A DNA stretch of 64,000 nucleotides from positions 147,922 through 211,921 of the forward strand of contig JBGVBY010000013.1 in NCBI GenBank assembly GCA_045226015.1, read 5' to 3'. The notes under the pieces are model-generated. The model worked only from the letters and a program-made list of their open reading frames with translations, did not search any database and was not told the DNA's origin. Positions 22,490 through 33,814 of this stretch are shown here, piece by piece; position 1 is the stretch's first letter; each line of letters opens with the position of its first letter. A program made the translations under genes and the position numbers. The stretch is from Bacilli bacterium. GTDB taxonomy: Bacteria > Bacillota_I > Bacilli_A > RFN20 > CAG-826.

Positions 22490-22566
<77 letters not shown>

Positions 22567-22791: not shown

Positions 22792-24282
22792 ATGCAAAAG
22801 AAAAAACTAGTATTATTAATCACATCGATTTTGTCAGTCGGTGCTGTTTCTACTACCATTTTAGTGTCAAATAATATTTCACTTTCTTTGAACGCTAAAG
22901 CTGATGTTGAACCATATACATTAACTATTAACGCCTCAAACAAATCTAATTTTGTGCAAGATGGCGATGTCTATAGAGGAACATTTAAAACCGCTCTTGG
23001 AAATGATATCGTTTTTAGAACAAAATCAGCCCCATCTAGTCAGGTAGGTGTTGTCTTTGAATTTACTAGCTTAAGCGATTATTTAATCAATGAAACTCCT
23101 CTTAGAGGGGTCACAAGTATCGAATTTACTGGCCATTATTTAAGAAATGGAAGTTTAAGTACATTTGGCTCTCTATACACATATTATCTAGAAGACCTTG
23201 ATATGGCCAGTTTAGATAAGGACGATCTTACCAATTCTACTAAACGCATAGAACCAGTAAGCGAATATCATCATCAATATGTTGTAGAAACTGGAAACTC
23301 GTTTGATAGAGCGGGCTCTTTATATTATTACATTGGTAATAAAGACTATGTTTATTCAAATTCAGATTGGGTTATTGAATCAGTCAAATACGTTTTTAGC
23401 TGTCAAAGCACTAAAACATATGTCAGTGTGACAAGTTCTGATTCCTCAAAAGGCAATGTTGCTATCGATAGTGCGGTAGCGAATAATAAAGGCTATAAAG
23501 TTGTCGCTAATGGAACTTCTGTCAAAATTCATGCTTACCCATTCTATAATTATCAAAATGATAATTTCTGTCTCTTTAAGGGATGGCATTTAAATGGCAG
23601 CGAACAAATCATTAGCACCGATGCTGATTACGCGTTCGTAACTGAACAAGATGGTGTTTATAAGTTTGTTGCAGAATTTATCGAAGCACCAAGTGAAACT
23701 TTTAGACAAGGTGTTAGATTATGCTATCAAGAAGAAGATTATTTTGGTAACATGCAATGGTATGAAGAAGATACTGATACATTCGTTAAATCTTATGATG
23801 GAGCATATTATGACCTCGAAAGTTATGTTGACACCATTAGTGGAAAAGGCCATTGTGAAACTCAAAGTTTTGATGAAGATGATTTATGGCATCAACACGC
23901 TAGAGGCACATCTGCCCTGACTCCTTATTTACGTTTAAACAAAAATTATAGTAAATACTATAAAGCGGACGGACAAGGCCACCAAGAAAAGGTTAATGTC
24001 AAAGACTTCGATCCTGATAAAGTTAGCTGTATTGAATTAGTGCTTGATAAGAGTGATGCGTGTGCAAGAGATGATCTTTCAATTAGTGGTGGCAATTTTG
24101 CCCACACAAAAAAAGATATCAATGATACTGACGGCAAAAAGATTTCTAAATTCTATATCGATAGTTTTACAAAAGACGTAATCAAAATCAGTATTCCTGA
24201 TAATATTAGTGACGTTAACTTCTTTAAGGTCAAAAGATTAGTGGTTCACTACAAAGTTGAAATTCCTCAACTCGAACAATAA
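22792..24282 (+). CDS. Secreted or surface protein of unknown function
   Basis: N-terminal signal peptide. A TGTATAAT extended -10 box lies upstream at ~22708. Confidence 0.5.
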   Translation: MQKKKLVLLITSILSVGAVSTTILVSNNISLSLNAKADVEPYTLTINASNKSNFVQDGDVYRGTFKTALGNDIVFRTKSAPSSQVGVVFEFTSLSDYLINETPLRGVTSIEFTGHYLRNGSLSTFGSLYTYYLEDLDMASLDKDDLTNSTKRIEPVSEYHHQYVVETGNSFDRAGSLYYYIGNKDYVYSNSDWVIESVKYVFSCQSTKTYVSVTSSDSSKGNVAIDSAVANNKGYKVVANGTSVKIHAYPFYNYQNDNFCLFKGWHLNGSEQIISTDADYAFVTEQDGVYKFVAEFIEAPSETFRQGVRLCYQEEDYFGNMQWYEEDTDTFVKSYDGAYYDLESYVDTISGKGHCETQSFDEDDLWHQHARGTSALTPYLRLNKNYSKYYKADGQGHQEKVNVKDFDPDKVSCIELVLDKSDACARDDLSISGGNFAHTKKDINDTDGKKISKFYIDSFTKDVIKISIPDNISDVNFFKVKRLVVHYKVEIPQLEQ

Positions 24283-25217: not shown

Positions 25218-26276
25218 TCAATGTTTTTTATTTTTAGACAGCTCTTTTTCAATTTCTTCTATAGAAGGTAAACTGCCTTTGTAATTATCAGGAATTAATT
25301 TAGATAATTCAAACGAAGAAACGCCTAATGGCTGAGAAGAAGATTCCATGGAATAACTTGCTAATACATTATCTTTGTCTTTACAAACAAGAATACCAAT
25401 TGTCTTTGAATCTATCTCGCTTTTTAAGATATGATCAACTGCTACTACATATGTGCCTAATTGACCTGTATATTCTGGCTTGAAAGTAGTGGTTTTAACT
25501 TCAATAACAACATAGGCATGTACTTGAGTGTTATAGAATAACATATCTAGGAATTGTTCTGTTTCTCCAACCATTAAACGATATTCTCTTCCTATGTATG
25601 CAAAGCCAGTTCCTAACTCTAATAGGAATTTTTGAATGTTATTAATTAATGCATCTTTTAATTCTTTTTCTGAGAAATCATTATCAAGGGAAATGAAATT
25701 AAAATTATAAGGATCCTTCGTCAGTTGTTTTGCTAAATCGCTATTTTCTTTTGGTAATGTTAATTCAAAATTGTTAATAGCCTTACCTTGCCTTTCATAA
25801 AGATTAGAATCAAGTTGGACTCTTAAAATTGATCTAGACCATCCATTTTCTATTGTTTTTTGAATATAAAATAGAGCTTTCTTTCGGTCTTTTTTCACCT
25901 TGTCTAGAAGAATAAGAATATGGCCCCAAGGCACCATTGTAATTTGCGCAACAACTTGCTGCGTAATTTTATTTTCCGGAAACAATTCATAGAATTGATG
26001 CATTGCTTGAAGGTTTCTTATAGAGAATCCTCTAGCGTCTTGAAACTGCTCATTTAGGTCTTTTGAAAGGGATGCATAAAATTTAGAACCCCATCTAGCT
26101 TCACTTTTCATTTTTACGATGTCTCTTCCAAGTGACCAATAAAAACGAATTAATTCACTGTTTACATGAACTGCTGCTTTGATTTGAGATTGTCTATATC
26201 TCTTTTTTAATTCTTTTATCCAGTTTTGATAATCTTCATCAAGTATGGATAATACTTTTTCACTAACTTCTTTCAT
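25218..26276 (-). CDS. DUF1016 (YhcG-like) PD-(D/E)XK nuclease-fold protein
   Basis: Characteristic DUF1016 N-terminus (NSELIRFYWSLGRDI...WGSKF...LSKDL...ARGFSIRNLQAM..FY) and a C-terminal PD-(D/E)XK-like core. Confidence 0.75.
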   Translation of the reverse strand: MKEVSEKVLSILDEDYQNWIKELKKRYRQSQIKAAVHVNSELIRFYWSLGRDIVKMKSEARWGSKFYASLSKDLNEQFQDARGFSIRNLQAMHQFYELFPENKITQQVVAQITMVPWGHILILLDKVKKDRKKALFYIQKTIENGWSRSILRVQLDSNLYERQGKAINNFELTLPKENSDLAKQLTKDPYNFNFISLDNDFSEKELKDALINNIQKFLLELGTGFAYIGREYRLMVGETEQFLDMLFYNTQVHAYVVIEVKTTTFKPEYTGQLGTYVVAVDHILKSEIDSKTIGILVCKDKDNVLASYSMESSSQPLGVSSFELSKLIPDNYKGSLPSIEEIEKELSKNKKH

Positions 26277-27806: not shown

Positions 27807-30329
27807 ATGATCAAGAAATTTCTCGGTATCACAGCTTTATCTTTAGCGTTTTCAGTCGGATTAAACACTAATTCCATTAAAGAAGAAACTGCTAAACCAA
27901 TTAAAGATAACCATTACTCATTAATCACTGATGATGTTCAAATTAAATCAAGTGATTCGCAGTGGTCAGCTTTTACTGGAAGTTACGCTCACGTTAATGG
28001 AAGTAGCATTGTCTTTAGTGAAATAGCTACTGGTGCAGACGCTAAATACGACCAATTAACAAAGACTTTAACTTTATATAACGATGAATCTTATCCCCTT
28101 ATTGATGGAGTTAAGGCTAGTGGTGAACTCGATTTAAAGATTGAATTTACTTGTGATTACAACGAAGATCACATGATTTGTTTTGAGCTTGATTGTGATA
28201 GTGCAGAATTAACTTCTACCGATAAGCATTCAATTTCTGTTTCATATTTATTCTCTAAAGACTTAACGTTATCAGGAAATTTAACTACTGTTGTCAATTT
28301 CTTTAAAGATAGTAGTGTTGCTGACGCATTTTTTGATCAAAGCATTGATCCACCTCATAACACTATTTTTGGAGCAACAAATTTCAATCTTAAAGGTAAT
28401 GCATCTTTAGATGGAACAAACGTCTATAACATGAGTAGCGTTAAAGAGCTTTATAAACCAAGCGATTTCTCGCTCTTTGCTTTAGATAATATGTATATCA
28501 ACACGAACGGATTCTTTAATATTGGAATGGATGCTTCTTCAAAATTCCCTACTGATTTTAACTGCTTGTTAAAAGTTGAAACTTTACCTTCTATTTTAAA
28601 ATGTGATCAAGGCTTCGCTATGAGATGCACAAATGGTAGGATTACCAATCTTGACGAATTAAACTATGTATTTGGTCAGTATTTTAACAATCATTACTAT
28701 ACGAATTTTCAACCAAATTATAAAATATTAAGCACTGTTAAAGAATGCACTTTGGCACCTTTATTTCACGCTACAGACATTCAAGCCGATGAAATCGCTA
28801 TTTATAATGATTCCACCAAGAAAAACTTTACTAACTATGAATATAGTGGATTAAAATTTGAAGATGGTGTTGTTGTTTTTGAAAAAGGTTGCACCTACAA
28901 TAATTTGATTATTGTAGAATCAAAAGGTAATAGGCCAGTTGATCTTGTTATTAGATTTGAAGAAGGCTCTTATGGTTCTATCTCTAGCATTCATAACAAA
29001 TTATTAATTATCAATAGATACGGAAATATCACTTTAACTACCGGTGAAAAAGAAGCGCATGTTGATTTGGGTGCGGTTTGCTGTACAGGCATTCTCTTTA
29101 TTAACGGCAATCTCAGTGTTAGAGAAAGAGGAACTATAGACTACTCTACAGCGTCTTCTTTTCCGATGTACATAATGGATTCGTATGCATATATTAGTAC
29201 TCACGGACTAATTAATGGTGATATCCAAATTGTAATTGAAGAAAATGCTTCTTTATACGCTGTCGGATCAGCATATGATTTTGGATTTATGTCAACTACC
29301 TTTGAAGGTGGTAATGTAGCGATTATTCGTACTGATAGATTATTGGTTACAACAAATAAATCTGTTACTCTCGGTTCGGTAACTAAACCTGAGAGTAGTA
29401 TTAGATACATAACTGCTCTTTCTTTTAATAGAATTACTTCCCAATATTGCTTATTAAGAAATCAAAAGAGTATTGAAGGTGCTACATTCAAAATTTATAG
29501 ATACAAACATACCGGTGTTGCGTTCTCAAATCCTGGTAGTTTTGATGGCTTTTGTAACGAATCTAAGACAACATATACTCTTTATAATGATGAAGAGCAC
29601 GAAAACGTTGAAATTGCTGAATTTAATACAAATAGTGTAGATAACTGGATTAAAAACCGTGTAATAACATTTGCTCCTAATGGTGGATATGGCACTATGC
29701 CAGAAGTAAATGGTTTAGTGGCCTATCAATTCTACACACTTCCAGAATGTAGTTTCATTGCTCCACTTGGTAAATTGTTTAAAGGTTGGGCGTTCAAAGA
29801 TAAAGATCCAAATGTGATTAAACAACCTGGTGAATTAGTCCAAGTTATTAGTCTTTCTTTAGAGATTTATCCAGTTTGGGAAGATTCTCCGGTTCAACCG
29901 TTGTCTGGAACAGTAACAATTGCTGGTAATTTAAAAGTTGGACAAACATTAGTTGCTGTTGTTACAGGTTCAAATAACACTGGTATTCTTTCTTATCAAT
30001 GGAGAAGAAATGGCGAAGATATCATTGGTGCGACTAGCAGCACTTATGTCCCTACTGAAGAAGACGTCGGTTACACTTTAAGTGTAGTCGTTACTAGCTC
30101 TATTGAAACAGGATCAATCATTGGAAGCGCAACTGGTGTCATCTCAGAAGCAGATGCTCCAGTGGTTCCAGTCGCTGATAGCGGCTCTAAAGGACTTAGT
30201 GGCGGCGCTATCGCAGGAATTATTATCGCTTCTATCTTAGTGGTAGGTATTGGAGGAGCTGCTATCTACTGGTTTATTATTAAAAAGAAAACCTGGGCAG
30301 ACTTCGTTAACTTATTCAAAAAGAAATAA
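27807..30329 (+). CDS. Large surface protein with Listeria/Bacteroides-type (Flg_new) repeats and a C-terminal TM anchor
   Basis: Signal peptide, the ITFAPNGGYGTMPEV...FKGWAF repeat, a C-terminal hydrophobic helix (AGIIIASILVVGIGGAAIYWFII) and a KKK stop-transfer sequence. Confidence 0.55.
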   Translation: MIKKFLGITALSLAFSVGLNTNSIKEETAKPIKDNHYSLITDDVQIKSSDSQWSAFTGSYAHVNGSSIVFSEIATGADAKYDQLTKTLTLYNDESYPLIDGVKASGELDLKIEFTCDYNEDHMICFELDCDSAELTSTDKHSISVSYLFSKDLTLSGNLTTVVNFFKDSSVADAFFDQSIDPPHNTIFGATNFNLKGNASLDGTNVYNMSSVKELYKPSDFSLFALDNMYINTNGFFNIGMDASSKFPTDFNCLLKVETLPSILKCDQGFAMRCTNGRITNLDELNYVFGQYFNNHYYTNFQPNYKILSTVKECTLAPLFHATDIQADEIAIYNDSTKKNFTNYEYSGLKFEDGVVVFEKGCTYNNLIIVESKGNRPVDLVIRFEEGSYGSISSIHNKLLIINRYGNITLTTGEKEAHVDLGAVCCTGILFINGNLSVRERGTIDYSTASSFPMYIMDSYAYISTHGLINGDIQIVIEENASLYAVGSAYDFGFMSTTFEGGNVAIIRTDRLLVTTNKSVTLGSVTKPESSIRYITALSFNRITSQYCLLRNQKSIEGATFKIYRYKHTGVAFSNPGSFDGFCNESKTTYTLYNDEEHENVEIAEFNTNSVDNWIKNRVITFAPNGGYGTMPEVNGLVAYQFYTLPECSFIAPLGKLFKGWAFKDKDPNVIKQPGELVQVISLSLEIYPVWEDSPVQPLSGTVTIAGNLKVGQTLVAVVTGSNNTGILSYQWRRNGEDIIGATSSTYVPTEEDVGYTLSVVVTSSIETGSIIGSATGVISEADAPVVPVADSGSKGLSGGAIAGIIIASILVVGIGGAAIYWFIIKKKTWADFVNLFKKK

Positions 30330-30378: not shown

Positions 30379-30894
30379 ATGTTAAAAGAAATTGAAAATC
30401 GTCGTTCATGTCGTAACTTTGATAAGGATAGATATCCTAGTGATGAAGATATTAATAAAATCGTAAAAGCAGGATTACTCGCTCCAAGCGCGATTAATGG
30501 TCAAGACGGAGTGATAATCATCTTTAAAAACAAAGAAGCTAGAGATAAACTCATGCTTCTAAATAAGAAATACGCTCATTTCCCAGTAGACGATCCTTTC
30601 TATCGCGCGCCCGTGATATTATTAGTAATGAATAAGAAGACTCCGTTTGCTAAATACGATGGTTCTTTAATGATGGAAAACATGATGTTAGAAGCCACTC
30701 ACTTAGGAATCGCTAATATCTGGATTCATCGAGCAAAAGAATCAGTGGAAGATCCTGAATTCAAAGAATTAGTTAAGGACTTAGATATCAATATTGATGA
30801 ATATGAGGGTATTGGTAATTTGGCGATTGGTTATTCTTTAAACGATAATTATCCACCTAAAAAGATCAAAGAAAATCGAGTTTATAAAATTTAA
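30379..30894 (+). CDS. Nitroreductase-family protein
   Basis: RRSCRNF...LLAPSAINGQ N-terminal signature. Confidence 0.85.
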   Translation: MLKEIENRRSCRNFDKDRYPSDEDINKIVKAGLLAPSAINGQDGVIIIFKNKEARDKLMLLNKKYAHFPVDDPFYRAPVILLVMNKKTPFAKYDGSLMMENMMLEATHLGIANIWIHRAKESVEDPEFKELVKDLDINIDEYEGIGNLAIGYSLNDNYPPKKIKENRVYKI

Positions 30895-30966
30895 TATAAA
30901 AATATCAAAAAAATAATTTTACTTAGTAAAATTAAAAAAACATTTCAAAAAAAGTTAAAAAAGTTG

Positions 30967-30995
30967 TTGCGTTAATTTTTCAATAAGCGCATAAT
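30967..30995 (+). promoter_or_regulatory. Sigma70-like promoter for the downstream ORF-free locus
   Basis: TTGCGT (30967-30972), a 17-nt spacer, then CATAAT (30990-30995). Confidence 0.5.
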
Positions 30996-31000
30996 TTTAA

Positions 31001-32057
31001 ACATCCACACCGCGAAAGCGATATGGAAGAGAATTAACTACTGATAAGTAGTTAGTAGACTCAAGACTAGGTAAGACAGTCACCGCGAAACAGAAGTTGA
31101 TACAGCGGATTCTAAAAAAAAGGTTTAGATTAATGACTGCTCTAGCAAGAGATGCCTTAAAACATCTCAAGGCTAAGTCCTCCCCGACAAAGTGGAAGCT
31201 GAGTTAGAACTTAACAGCGTAAAACCACCGCCTGACAAGAACGAAGAGGACAGATATGAGGTAATAGCCATATCAACCGACCGAGTCGTGCTAAGATCAA
31301 CTCAAAACACGAAATAAGTAAGAGAATTGCAAGATATCGCTTACAAAAAGGTTCGAAGTTCAGCTAACGTAAGACAATCAACCCATTACACGACGTTGAT
31401 AGTAAGGTTCTAGAATTAAAACTTCTAGTTAATGATTGCAGTTAACTTATCATCACTCGTGATGATTAAACGGCCCACCTCCCTGTTACAGTGGTCACTG
31501 AGTTAGAGTTTAACAGTGTAGAAAATCCACCGCCGGACACGATCAAAGAGGTAAAAACAAGACCTATTAACTAAAAAGAATAGGTAAAGCCTAATCCACA
31601 TTATTCAACTCAAAGTGTGGAGATAGTAGAAGAGTTACAAACCTCCTAGCATCTTCTATGAAAAAACGGTCTAATGAACTTAAGACTAGGTAAACCAATC
31701 AGGTCCTTGAATTGAGTGGGGACCTCTGGAAATCAAAAGCTTCCAGTTAAATGATTGTTCTAGCAAAGAATTAGGAGAGATCCTAATTATCGGTACGTTC
31801 CTCCCTGATAGCCTGCTATCACTGGTCCCTACGTTAAAGTTTGATAGGGTAAATCCAGCACCGGACATGACGAAGAGGAAAACAGCCTTGACGCTAATAA
31901 CGAAAGGAAGCTGGCCATCGATACGCTAATCAATTCAAAACGTATCAAAATCAAGAAGCACCACCAGCCAAAAGGAACTTAACTTGGATATTGTTGCAGG
32001 GTGAAATCCCCTGCACAGTATAACGGTTAGCGGTAAAGAGTAAAGCCGCTTTTTTTC
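31001..32057 (+). ncRNA. Candidate large structured ncRNA of three tandem ~300-320-nt homologous units, not assigned to any known family
   Basis: ~1.06 kb with no credible ORF and higher GC than the surrounding sequence. Three homologous units each begin TTAATGA(C/T)TG at 31133, 31432 and 31751. Each has a hairpin at the same offset with a different sequence and a CCUCC/GAGGA helix whose flanking base co-varies. An upstream promoter and a downstream intrinsic terminator (32029..32057) flank it. Confidence 0.55.
32029..32057 (+). terminator. Intrinsic terminator for the candidate ncRNA
   Basis: AGCGG-taaagagtaaag-CCGCT followed by TTTTTTT. Confidence 0.6.
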
Positions 32058-32076
32058 TGATTTCAGAATAAAAAAT

Positions 32077-32099
32077 AAATCACTACTAAGTAGTGATTT
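32077..32099 (-). terminator. Terminator for the convergent SDR operon
   Basis: Perfect inverted repeat AAATCACTAC-TAA-GTAGTGATTT. A T-run follows on the minus strand. Confidence 0.6.
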
Positions 32100-32101
32100 A
32101 A

Positions 32102-32899
32102 TTATTTAATAAGTATTTGTTTGATAACCCAGTTTTGAAATCTTTTAGGCATGATATTAAGTAATCTTAATAATGGGTTACGATTTATTTTATAAATATA
32201 GTTAGGTTTCTTCTTTTTAAATACCTTAGCAATGATTTTAGCAATCTTACTAGGTGGTATCTTCTTAGCTTCTACTTTATCAACAATGTTTTTAAATCTA
32301 GTGGCGTTATAGGAATAATTAGTAGTGGATTCACAGAACTTATCAAGTTTAGTAGTGGAGACATTAAGTAAACCAGTATCCACTGCACCAGGACGAATAA
32401 CTACGACTTGTTTATCCAATAATTGAAGTTCCATTCTTAACGAATAAGCGTATTTTTCAATCGTAGTTTTTGTGATTCCGTAGATTCCCGTAAATGGAAG
32501 AGGATCTAAAGGAGCGAGCTCACTAGAAATGATGATGATTTTACCTTTTTTCTTCAAAGAAGAAACAAATGTCTTATTGATTCGATAAATAGAGAAGACA
32601 TTGATATTGAAGATACGAATAAAATCTTCTTCTTTCATCTCTATAAGAGAATTTAAATCATAAATTCCTGCAAGATGAATAATTGCGCTTAAACTAGCGA
32701 ATTCTTCCTTGTTATCGTTATAAATCTTTTCAATGGATTCGATATTAGTGAGATCAACTTGATGAAAAATGAAGTTTTTATCTTCTAAATCTGGTTTTTT
32801 AATATCAAGTCCAATAACTTGATGGCCCAAAGAAAGAAACTTTTTAAGAGTTTCTAACCCCATTCCTCCAGAAGCACCAGTGATGAGTACTTTTTCCAT
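32102..32899 (-). CDS. Short-chain dehydrogenase/reductase (SDR)
   Basis: TGASGGMG Rossmann motif near the N-terminus. Confidence 0.85.
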   Translation of the reverse strand: MEKVLITGASGGMGLETLKKFLSLGHQVIGLDIKKPDLEDKNFIFHQVDLTNIESIEKIYNDNKEEFASLSAIIHLAGIYDLNSLIEMKEEDFIRIFNINVFSIYRINKTFVSSLKKKGKIIIISSELAPLDPLPFTGIYGITKTTIEKYAYSLRMELQLLDKQVVVIRPGAVDTGLLNVSTTKLDKFCESTTNYSYNATRFKNIVDKVEAKKIPPSKIAKIIAKVFKKKKPNYIYKINRNPLLRLLNIMPKRFQNWVIKQILIK

Positions 32900-32938: not shown

Positions 32939-33814
32939 TTATTTATCGTGCTCATTTAGTAAATATTGTCTTTCTCTTCGTTTTGGGAATTCTTTGATTT
33001 TAGGATAACCACTCATCGTGAATAATCCACGAGGAACAATATAATCACCTTTTTTAGATAAATCACTAACCCCAGTAAGAAGAGTTAACGATGCCTTTTC
33101 AGGACTATGGAAGAAGGCAATTAGGAAACATTTTCCTAAAAATCTAATTAATCTGTTAAAGTGGCGAATAATTCTAGTCGAAGATATGCCAGGTTCAGTT
33201 AAGACAAACTTAATGTTTTCTGGTGTATTTATATTCCAATAATAGAAGTTAGCCTCTAGATATGTTTTGGAGGTGTTATATTGAGTGAACACTCCGTTTT
33301 TTGGATTGTTAAGATCTAAAGATTTACTAACTCCTTTAACAGCGACAATTGAACCTTGAATAACGATTTTATGTTCGCCTTCTAAATGAGGAAGTAAAGA
33401 ATCCACAAAGTGTTTAACTCCATAGTAATTAACACCCATGGAGTAAGGATATCCATCAACTGTAACTCCACCCTTTTTACCAATAAGGACACCTGCGTTC
33501 AACACTAAAGAATGAAAGTCTTTATATTCTTCAAGAATATAGTTAACAGTTTCTTCAATGGAAGCGAAACTACTTTGATCATAATAATGGGTAGAAATAT
33601 CGGCGTTAGGATAACTAACTTTTATCTTGTTAATTTCTTCGTTAGCATTATCTAAATTTCTAACTAGTAAAACTACTTTCGCGTGCTTATTCACTAAGTG
33701 ATGAAGAAGTGCGTTTCCGATTCCAGAAGTGCCTCCAGTTAGGATAACTGTTCTTCCTTTAAAATCTTCTATTTTAGATAAGTATTTCTTAACACTCATG
33801 AAACAATCATACAC
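32939..33814 (-). CDS. Short-chain dehydrogenase/reductase (SDR)
   Basis: TGGTSGIG motif and NAG, tandem to the preceding SDR. Confidence 0.8.
   Translation of the reverse strand: MYDCFMSVKKYLSKIEDFKGRTVILTGGTSGIGNALLHHLVNKHAKVVLLVRNLDNANEEINKIKVSYPNADISTHYYDQSSFASIEETVNYILEEYKDFHSLVLNAGVLIGKKGGVTVDGYPYSMGVNYYGVKHFVDSLLPHLEGEHKIVIQGSIVAVKGVSKSLDLNNPKNGVFTQYNTSKTYLEANFYYWNINTPENIKFVLTEPGISSTRIIRHFNRLIRFLGKCFLIAFFHSPEKASLTLLTGVSDLSKKGDYIVPRGLFTMSGYPKIKEFPKRRERQYLLNEHDK

Follow-up and report, generated by a model that had tools for sequence, protein, structure and literature searches.

A ~1-kb candidate structured RNA with three pseudoknotted domains, each built around the cow-rumen-1 motif, in uncultured Bacilli of the ruminant foregut

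To our knowledge, very few large and intricately folded bacterial RNAs exist besides ribosomal RNA (rRNA), RNase P and the introns. Recent cryo-electron microscopy of three of them, ROOL, GOLLD and OLE, has reportedly revealed unexpected higher-order assemblies. The three RNAs build multi-copy assemblies (PMC12286853), and ROOL has also been found in cow rumen data, in a study (Weinberg et al. 2017, NAR 45:10811, PMC5737381) that is likewise the source of the cow-rumen-1 motif (Rfam RF02946), which its main text does not discuss. Here we describe a locus at positions 30965-32060 of a 64,000-nt stretch of DNA (the window) from a Bacilli bacterium of the lineage CAG-826 (GenBank assembly GCA_045226015.1, contig JBGVBY010000013.1, positions 147,922 to 211,921), in which this motif occurs three times. 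We read the locus as a free-standing gene on the plus strand for a noncoding RNA (ncRNA) of ~1,055 nt with three pseudoknotted domains and, by way of a guess, a trans-acting multivalent role, and to this combined reading we assign a probability of roughly 0.6. The boundaries of the gene, its architecture, its helices and its pseudoknots are established by the comparative analysis below.

The RNA resembles ROOL, GOLLD, OLE and raiA in being long, free-standing and devoid of open reading frames (ORFs), in combining many pseudoknots with multistem junctions, and in its conserved unpaired nucleotides and narrow lineage or habitat range. It does not match their Rfam models, however: none of those of ROOL, GOLLD, OLE, raiA and HEARO reaches the gathering threshold anywhere in the 64-kb window, or matches 30800-32200 at E-values up to 5. 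Whereas GOLLD and ROOL are frequently found in a prophage or tRNA-gene context, this RNA occurs in neither, and its length (~1,055 nt, or at least 2 kb when expanded) exceeds that of GOLLD. A further difference lies in the modules, here termed U1, U2 and U3, which are joined covalently in one chain of the form (U1-U2)n-U3, while those of ROOL, GOLLD and OLE are separate identical molecules that oligomerise (PMC12286853). If large complex-folded bacterial ncRNAs are defined operationally as ORF-free molecules of more than ~500 nt with several multistem junctions, covariation-backed pseudoknots and conserved unpaired nucleotides, the locus belongs among them, with ~1,055 nt, 40 helices and no ORF of more than 60 aa.

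The absence of a credible ORF, first noted from the letters alone (the sequence-only reading), is borne out, since 30965-32060 holds none longer than 60 aa on either strand; the longest stop-free stretches have a median of 88 aa. The locus is also richer in GC (0.38-0.44) than its flanks (0.25-0.35), as had been claimed, and its plus strand shows a strong skew of A over T. The frequent G-U pairs of the fold described below identify the plus strand as that of the RNA. The parts of the transcription unit are as follows.

30946-30995, plus strand: promoter, with an A-rich UP-like tract (30946-30962), a -35 element TTGCGT (30967-30972), a 17-nt spacer and a -10 element CATAAT (30990-30995).
31004-31062, plus strand: two-hairpin leader, made up of L1 (31004-31027; GAAA tetraloop, 31014-31017) and L2 (31029-31062).
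31036-31042 / 31047-31053, plus strand: inner stem of L2, closed by a GAUA loop, with 7 pairs, of which 6 show compensatory changes, and 99.7% of cells paired.
31063-31361, plus strand: unit 1 (U1).
31362-31681, plus strand: unit 2 (U2).
31682-31980, plus strand: unit 3 (U3).
31981-32028, plus strand: trailer hairpin, pairing 31981-84/32025-28 and 31988-91/32018-21, with the tip GCAGGG (31997-32002) / CCCTGC (32010-32015).
32029-32056, plus strand: intrinsic terminator, with the stem AGCGG (32029-32033) / CCGCU (32046-32050), a 12-nt loop and a T-run at 32050-32056.

The extents of the three units derive from the covariation scan, the coordinate table and the per-helix counts. Transcription would start near 31002. 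The promoter lies exactly where the sequence-only reading had put it, and it occupies the position orthologous to a promoter common to 43 aligned loci, all of which (43/43) keep the A-tract, the -35 element (with the variants TTGACA, TTGCAA and TTGACG), the 17-nt spacer and the -10 element, (C/T)ATA(C/A)T, immediately upstream of the leader. The terminator is likewise present as described; in homologs the stem at its position covaries (GCGG/CCGC, GAGGC/GCCUC, GUGGC/GCCAC and others), and almost every one of these stems has a T-run behind it. With its own promoter and its own intrinsic terminator, both conserved in homologs, the locus constitutes an independent transcription unit. A generic consensus scan for promoters and terminators missed both elements, the window promoter falling below its threshold and the terminator going undetected because its 12-nt loop exceeds 8 nt; comparative alignment was needed to find them.

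Between these signals, the three homologous units of ~300 nt that had been proposed are real. They align with a mean column identity of 70%, and in an nhmmer search with their profile the window yields three copies and no more (30993-31311, 31297-31621 and 31605-31943). The TTAATGA boxes that had been taken as unit starts are present, but they begin at 31130, 31429 and 31747-31750 and not at 31133, 31432 and 31751 (a shift of 1-4 nt), and the structural boundaries of the units are better placed at ~31063, 31362 and 31682. The GCAGGG/CCCTGC hairpin, now part of the trailer, also stands, at the slightly corrected coordinates given above.

Homologs were sought with the conserved tail of the motif as query in one genome per GTDB species. 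The scan returned 61 loci, of which four show no homology to the units and are chance hits, leaving 57 real ones. These belong to 49 species-level metagenome-assembled genomes (MAGs) of uncultured bacteria, which bear the labels Bacilli, Bacillales or Erysipelotrichaceae and were all obtained from ruminant foreguts. One further MAG with a homolog is labelled Alphaproteobacteria, probably through a binning error. A scan of metagenomes added 119 contigs, of which 117 are real and follow the same architectural grammar. Among the arrays not cut by the end of the locus, 43 of 49 have exactly three units and span 940-1,000 nt. With profiles of five parts (LEAD, U1, U2, U3 and TRAIL), the order LEAD-U1-U2-U3-TRAIL is recovered in 38 complete GTDB loci, LEAD preceding U1 in each of them and TRAIL following U3 in homologs. 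At all three positions, the nearest relative of every unit (43/43) is found at the corresponding position of another locus, and identity amounts to 0.67-0.71 between units of the same position against 0.47-0.52 between positions. Because same-position units are always closest, the triplication is ancient, and the units are distinct conserved paralogs inside one gene. Repeats of ~300 nt that are ~50% identical and comprise no short repeat family are also not what a CRISPR array or a short tandem repeat would present.

About a dozen loci carry an expanded variant, LEAD-U1-U2-U1-U2-U3-TRAIL, and two (L087 and L094) a seven-unit form, (U1-U2)3-U3, so that the RNA grows to between 1.6 kb and more than 2 kb. 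Since the expanded forms follow (U1-U2)n-U3, the U1-U2 pair behaves as a duplicating module. Arrays with n = 2 or 3 were noted in L087 (7 units), L094, L028, L033, L010, L069 and L104, and further ones in L105, L116, L122, L158, L160 and L175. The sole case found of a repeated U3 is L089 (1-1681), which reads LEAD-U1-U2-U3-U3-U3-TRAIL and is either a real variant or a misassembly.

The fold was derived from an alignment of 43 loci, for which the 151 pairs predicted by RNAalifold include 99 with compensatory changes, and from an all-against-all covariation scan, which adds long-range pairings shared by the three units. Every unit contains a three-way junction, P1-P4. A kissing contact, Pk, joins the GAAGUUGAUA loop to the AUCAACUCAAAAC loop ~200 nt downstream. 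Around the hairpin of the cow-rumen-1 motif (P6/P7), Pa and Pb form an H-type pseudoknot, in which GGC pairs with GCC of the tail (Pa) and (U)CCUC with GAGG(A) of GAAGAGG (Pb), and the loop of the same hairpin engages a strand ~150 nt downstream in a 6-bp loop-linker pseudoknot, Pc. The helices have the following coordinates, all on the plus strand.

U1, junction helices: P1 31067-70/31142-45; P2 31077-82/31134-39; P3 31083-86/31105-08; P4 31113-15/31124-26.
U1, pseudoknot and hairpin helices: Pa 31171-74/31230-33; Pb 31178-82/31246-50; P6 31192-95/31225-28; P7 31198-201/31215-18; P9 31286-90/31308-12.
U1, long-range contacts: kissing loop Pk 31095-101 with 31296-302; loop-linker pseudoknot Pc 31207-12 with 31356-61.
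U2, junction helices: P1 about 31362-66, its partner near 31441-45; P2 31376-79/31434-37; P3 31390-91/31402-03; P4 31411-14/31424-27.
U2, pseudoknot and hairpin helices: Pa 31471-74/31532-35; Pb 31477-81/31548-52; P6 31491-94/31527-30; P7 31497-500/31514-17; P9 31595-601/31615-21.
U2, long-range contacts: Pk 31395-99 with 31605-09; Pc 31506-11 with 31676-81.
U3, first helices: P1 31686-89/31760-63; P2 31696-701/31752-57; P3 31704-07/31719-22; P5 31769-75/31782-88.
U3, H-type pseudoknot: Pa 31791-94/31860-63; Pb 31798-803/31875-80; extra hairpin 31806-10/31817-21.
U3, hairpins of the centre: P6 31822-25/31855-58; P7 31828-31/31845-48; P8 31886-93/31901-07.
U3, hairpins of the 3' part: P10 31910-14/31964-68; P9 31920-25/31941-46.
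U3, long-range contacts: Pk 31710-15 with 31930-35; Pc 31837-42 with 31975-80.

The complete model comprises 190 pairs in 40 helices, nine of which are pseudoknot or kissing helices, and it departs clearly from its controls. Paired cells reach 96.5%, against 27-43% in slid controls and 86.0% ± 0.2 in column shuffles; pairs changed on both sides number 118, against 34-46 and 69 ± 3.5, respectively, with none of 500 shuffles attaining the observed value; and the covariation score is 0.366, against 0.06-0.08 and 0.162 ± 0.003. Pc is fully complementary (6/6) in 148 of 169 U1-to-U2 junctions, 152 of 164 U2-to-U3 junctions and 95 of 118 U3-to-trailer junctions (395/451 in all), and in expanded arrays it persists where U2 meets U1, there with new pair types. 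Its 3' strand runs into P1 of the next unit after a linker of 0-2 nt; P1 of U2, for instance, covaries and directly adjoins the Pc 3' strand of U1. Before U1, the 3' strand of leader hairpin L2 occupies the place that the Pc strand takes before U2 and U3. Given the 0-2 nt linker, Pc would stack coaxially on the next unit's P1 and couple the domains head to tail, with the leader and the trailer as caps. Some pairings proposed by RNAalifold were rejected: that between CCUC of U1 and GAGG of U2, which the intra-unit Pb explains better, and those of the leader with the T-run of the terminator, which look spurious.

Comparison with Rfam places the P6/P7 hairpin and the conserved tail of each unit in the cow-rumen-1 family, whose model spans 61 nt and has a gathering score of 53.4 bits.

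31189-31249, plus strand: cow-rumen-1 copy 1, cmscan 75.4 bits, E = 4e-16, comprising hairpin P6/P7 and the conserved tail CCACCGCCUGACAAGAACGAAGAGG.
31488-31551, plus strand: cow-rumen-1 copy 2, cmscan 72.2 bits.
31819-31878, plus strand: cow-rumen-1 copy 3, cmscan 75.4 bits.

All three matches are full-length (model positions 1-61) and above the gathering score, and with one such match per unit the locus is, by score, a member of the family. The same holds in the 13 other loci tested, with 54 matches in total, exactly one per unit, and no other Rfam family. The conserved blocks described in the sequence-only reading, GAGTTAGA..TTAACAG, CCACCGCC.GACA and GAAGAGGA, were found in every unit and together make up the motif. 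Both its stems, P6 and P7, covary in all three units, and its tail, CCgCCGGACAcGAUCGAAGAGG, is nearly invariant across the 43 loci. A confident Rfam match had been named as grounds for abandoning the interpretation of the locus as a large structured ncRNA; three were obtained, and the interpretation stands, the matches covering one hairpin and tail per unit and together ~18% of the transcript. No Rfam family other than cow-rumen-1 matches within 30800-32200 even at E = 5. Since part of the locus was already catalogued, it is the large architecture that is novel, and the presence of a conserved RNA motif is not. Rfam annotates cow-rumen-1 as a whole RNA ('Gene; sRNA', small RNA) and models it as one hairpin with an 'unpaired' tail, whereas here it is one element of a ~300-nt domain, present at least three times in a conserved transcription unit of at least 1 kb, and its tail and loop are pseudoknotted with outside sequences through Pa, Pb and Pc. 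In the searchable literature, from which the supplement of the 2017 study (PMC5737381) is excluded, we found no treatment of cow-rumen-1 other than its Rfam entry and no account of a tripartite rumen RNA, and a large modular RNA around this motif appears to be undescribed there.

Metagenomic contigs also bear on the expression of the gene. About 25 of them consist of the RNA alone, measuring 1.00-1.05 kb, or 1.58-1.69 kb for five-unit forms; they begin 5-25 nt inside the leader hairpin and stop inside the terminator hairpin. Their occurrence is clustered in certain JGI samples; in contigs from others the flanks are normal. This pattern, in samples of unconfirmed type, looks like that of assembled transcripts and not of collapsed DNA repeats, and it suggests that the RNA is expressed abundantly as one full-length molecule.

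The interpretation of the locus as a large structured ncRNA with its own promoter and terminator, laid out from promoter to terminator over ~1 kb without ORFs and in three units, thus draws support from more than 150 homologous loci, through their conservation, their covariation and their shared architecture. We propose that a strong sigma-70-type promoter with an A-tract would drive the synthesis of one ~1,055-nt RNA, ending at the intrinsic terminator, in which three homologous, position-specialised domains of ~300 nt (U1, U2 and U3) would lie between a two-hairpin leader and a hairpin trailer. Pc would tie the domains head to tail, with the trailer following the last Pc, and the chain would display three near-identical conserved unpaired surfaces, such as the GACAnGAUCGAA junction, or five or seven of them in the expanded variants. 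These surfaces might then bind a partner, be it a protein or a ligand, or organise it. That the RNA works in trans, in an architectural role or by multivalent binding, is a guess, and one with more chances of failing than of holding; it is suggested by the near-invariant unpaired junctions in every unit, by the conservation of an ordered and capped chain and by the natural five- and seven-domain versions. The mechanism we deem likeliest, again as a guess, is that of sponge RNAs such as CsrB and RsmZ, which likewise repeat a binding module on an abundant trans-acting RNA, but whose modules are short GGA hairpins, whereas the present one is a pseudoknotted, position-diverged domain of ~300 nt without a match to them in Rfam.

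Several observations weigh against this proposal. The all-against-all scan revealed no covarying inter-unit helix other than Pc, and with only Pc joining the units, the domains could fold independently. No variation occurs in the four central pairs of Pb (CCUC/GAGG), in any pair of the U2 Pk or in any pair of the U3 Pa, all of which are hence compatible with pairing but not proof of it. Pc is mutually exclusive with a 3-bp inner stem of the Rfam model, which itself has one covarying pair; Pc shows more double-compensatory changes (columns 305/559, 306/558 and 307/557), while the inner stem changes mostly through wobble pairs, and as the data are compatible with both, they could be alternative states. 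The single-sequence folding energies of the window units are unexceptional (z = -0.4 to -1.3) and, with much the same values for the reverse strand and for the coding flanks, uninformative, so that the case for the structure comes solely from covariation. The alignment includes close relatives, because of which sequence counts overstate the number of independent events. Transcription, abundance and lack of processing are suggested by contig shapes from samples of unconfirmed type, and the functional part of the proposal is a guess.

Among competing explanations, all of which we rank below the multivalent or architectural role, the one that survives best is that of a polycistronic precursor, which we consider unlikely. 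The ~1-kb transcript would be cut into ~300-nt RNAs with one cow-rumen-1 motif each, serving as independent aptamer-like sensors, ribozymes or protein-binding sRNAs, in agreement with the Rfam typing of the motif as an sRNA gene, with the addition of units in pairs and with the fact that the well-supported helices are all intra-unit if the Pc 3' strand is counted as the end of its unit. Yet neither reading of the sequence nor the generic scan gives evidence of internal promoters or terminators, the U1-U2-U3 order is kept with its position-specific sequence across 49 species, the Pc strand all but abuts P1 of the next unit between a leader and a trailer that look like end caps, and the RNA-only contigs cross all junctions.

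Far less probable is a decoy that mimics the ribosome, the units imitating the 3' minor domain of 16S rRNA in order to titrate a decoding-centre factor, a toxin or a drug. The tail CCACCGCCCG(A/U)CA (31225-31237 and 31527-31539 in the window, and homologs such as L020 and L056) matches 11-13 of 13 positions of the universally conserved 16S strand CACCGCCCGUCA (~1395-1408). As resemblances of sequence only, GAAGUUGAUA is similar to GAAGUCGUAA and the CCUC/GAGG helix to a Shine-Dalgarno duplex, and the invariance of the CCUC/GAGG core in spite of its being paired hints at sequence-specific recognition. However, by our estimate chance alone should give about one 11/12 match when a 300-nt unit is compared with a 1.5-kb rRNA, and the similar pieces lack colinearity with 16S. 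GUUGAU, moreover, has its place in the covarying kissing loop Pk, and the Rfam models of small-subunit rRNA give no match even at E = 5.

We regard with similar scepticism a selfish or mobile RNA-encoding element, multi-copy and scattered over varied contexts through transposition or retro-mobility. The gene is multi-copy in some genomes, six MAGs carrying 2-3 loci, and the flanking genes vary between lineages, as such an element would have it. Two complete or partial arrays were also seen on one contig within a few kb of each other (L028, L027, L064, L081, L109, L127, L142, L143 and L171). Against mobility, no transposase, reverse transcriptase or integrase recurs beside the arrays, neither terminal repeats nor target duplications were observed, 2.9 million viral contigs gave no match to the tail pattern, and 35 loci contained a single tRNA, which lies ~5 kb away from its array. 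The promoter and terminator are kept in housekeeping style, and so is synteny among close relatives: the commonest flanking family, shared by 9 of 60 arrays, occurs in nine syntenic close relatives, and no conserved neighbouring gene or partner protein was found. From its context, copy number and strong promoter, the locus looks less like a regulatory leader or a mobile element than like a gene for a stable RNA that is present in several copies and highly expressed.

A cis-regulatory leader, such as a tandem riboswitch or a T-box-like array, is scarcely credible. Some riboswitches do have tandem homologous aptamer-like domains, and those of the glycine type share with this RNA the arrangement of homologous structured domains in series on one molecule, but they are cis-acting 5' leaders of a regulated gene. 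The present RNA ends at its own terminator, matches no riboswitch or T-box model of Rfam, and has no conserved downstream gene family. In the window, Pfam agrees with the sequence-only reading on the neighbours, a nitroreductase gene upstream (30379-30894, plus strand) and two convergent short-chain dehydrogenase (SDR) genes downstream (32102-32899 and 32939-33814, both minus strand), and the conclusion of that reading that the locus cannot be a 5' leader is upheld. A decayed pseudogene or non-functional tandem DNA repeat, which gene decay or replication slippage could produce with the same lack of ORFs and the same repeats, is effectively refuted by compensatory changes in 118 of 190 pairs, by position-specific conservation over 49 species and by the conserved promoter and terminator.

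Other features of the window were recorded alongside. A perfect 12-bp palindromic hairpin, TAAATCACTACT-A-AGTAGTGATTTA, at 32076-32100 was reported by the generic terminator scan and, because a T-run follows it on the minus strand, probably terminates the SDR gene ending at 32102; one of its arms resembles leader hairpin L2 (31032-31052 versus 32074-32094, 76% identity), possibly by chance. A COG3943 RNA (RF02941; 26349-26456, minus strand; full-length match, 98.6 bits against a gathering score of 71.8) lies ~70 nt upstream, on the same strand, of a YhcG/DUF1016 PDDEXK-nuclease gene (25218-26276) and looks like its 5' untranslated region element. Two plus-strand genes code for proteins without a Pfam match at E = 1e-5, one of 840 aa (27807-30329), whose N-terminal segment is signal-like and whose C-terminus carries a hydrophobic anchor, and one of 496 aa (22792-24282). 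A tRNA gene (22490-22563, plus strand; RF00005, 61.4 bits) lies ~8.5 kb upstream of the RNA locus and is not associated with it.

The locus adds a candidate large bacterial RNA, longer than ROOL, GOLLD and OLE and of distinct construction, in which diverged copies of one domain are set on a single chain, locked by pseudoknots and found in natural three-, five- and seven-domain versions. The cow-rumen-1 'sRNA' of Rfam appears to be a fragment of this much larger RNA, with its tail and hairpin loop paired and not single-stranded. We tentatively suggest, at somewhat less than even odds, that these loci represent an unrecognised class of giant RNAs with the formula leader-(U1-U2)n-U3-trailer (n = 1, 2 or 3), abundant and multi-copy, whose modules are coupled by loop-linker pseudoknots and of which the cow-rumen-1 'sRNA' is a piece. 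If true, the class would be an intramolecular counterpart of the homo-oligomeric assemblies of ROOL and GOLLD. Given its strong conserved promoter, its several gene copies and its stand-alone contigs in some rumen data sets, the molecule is probably among the abundant RNAs of widespread uncultured rumen bacteria.

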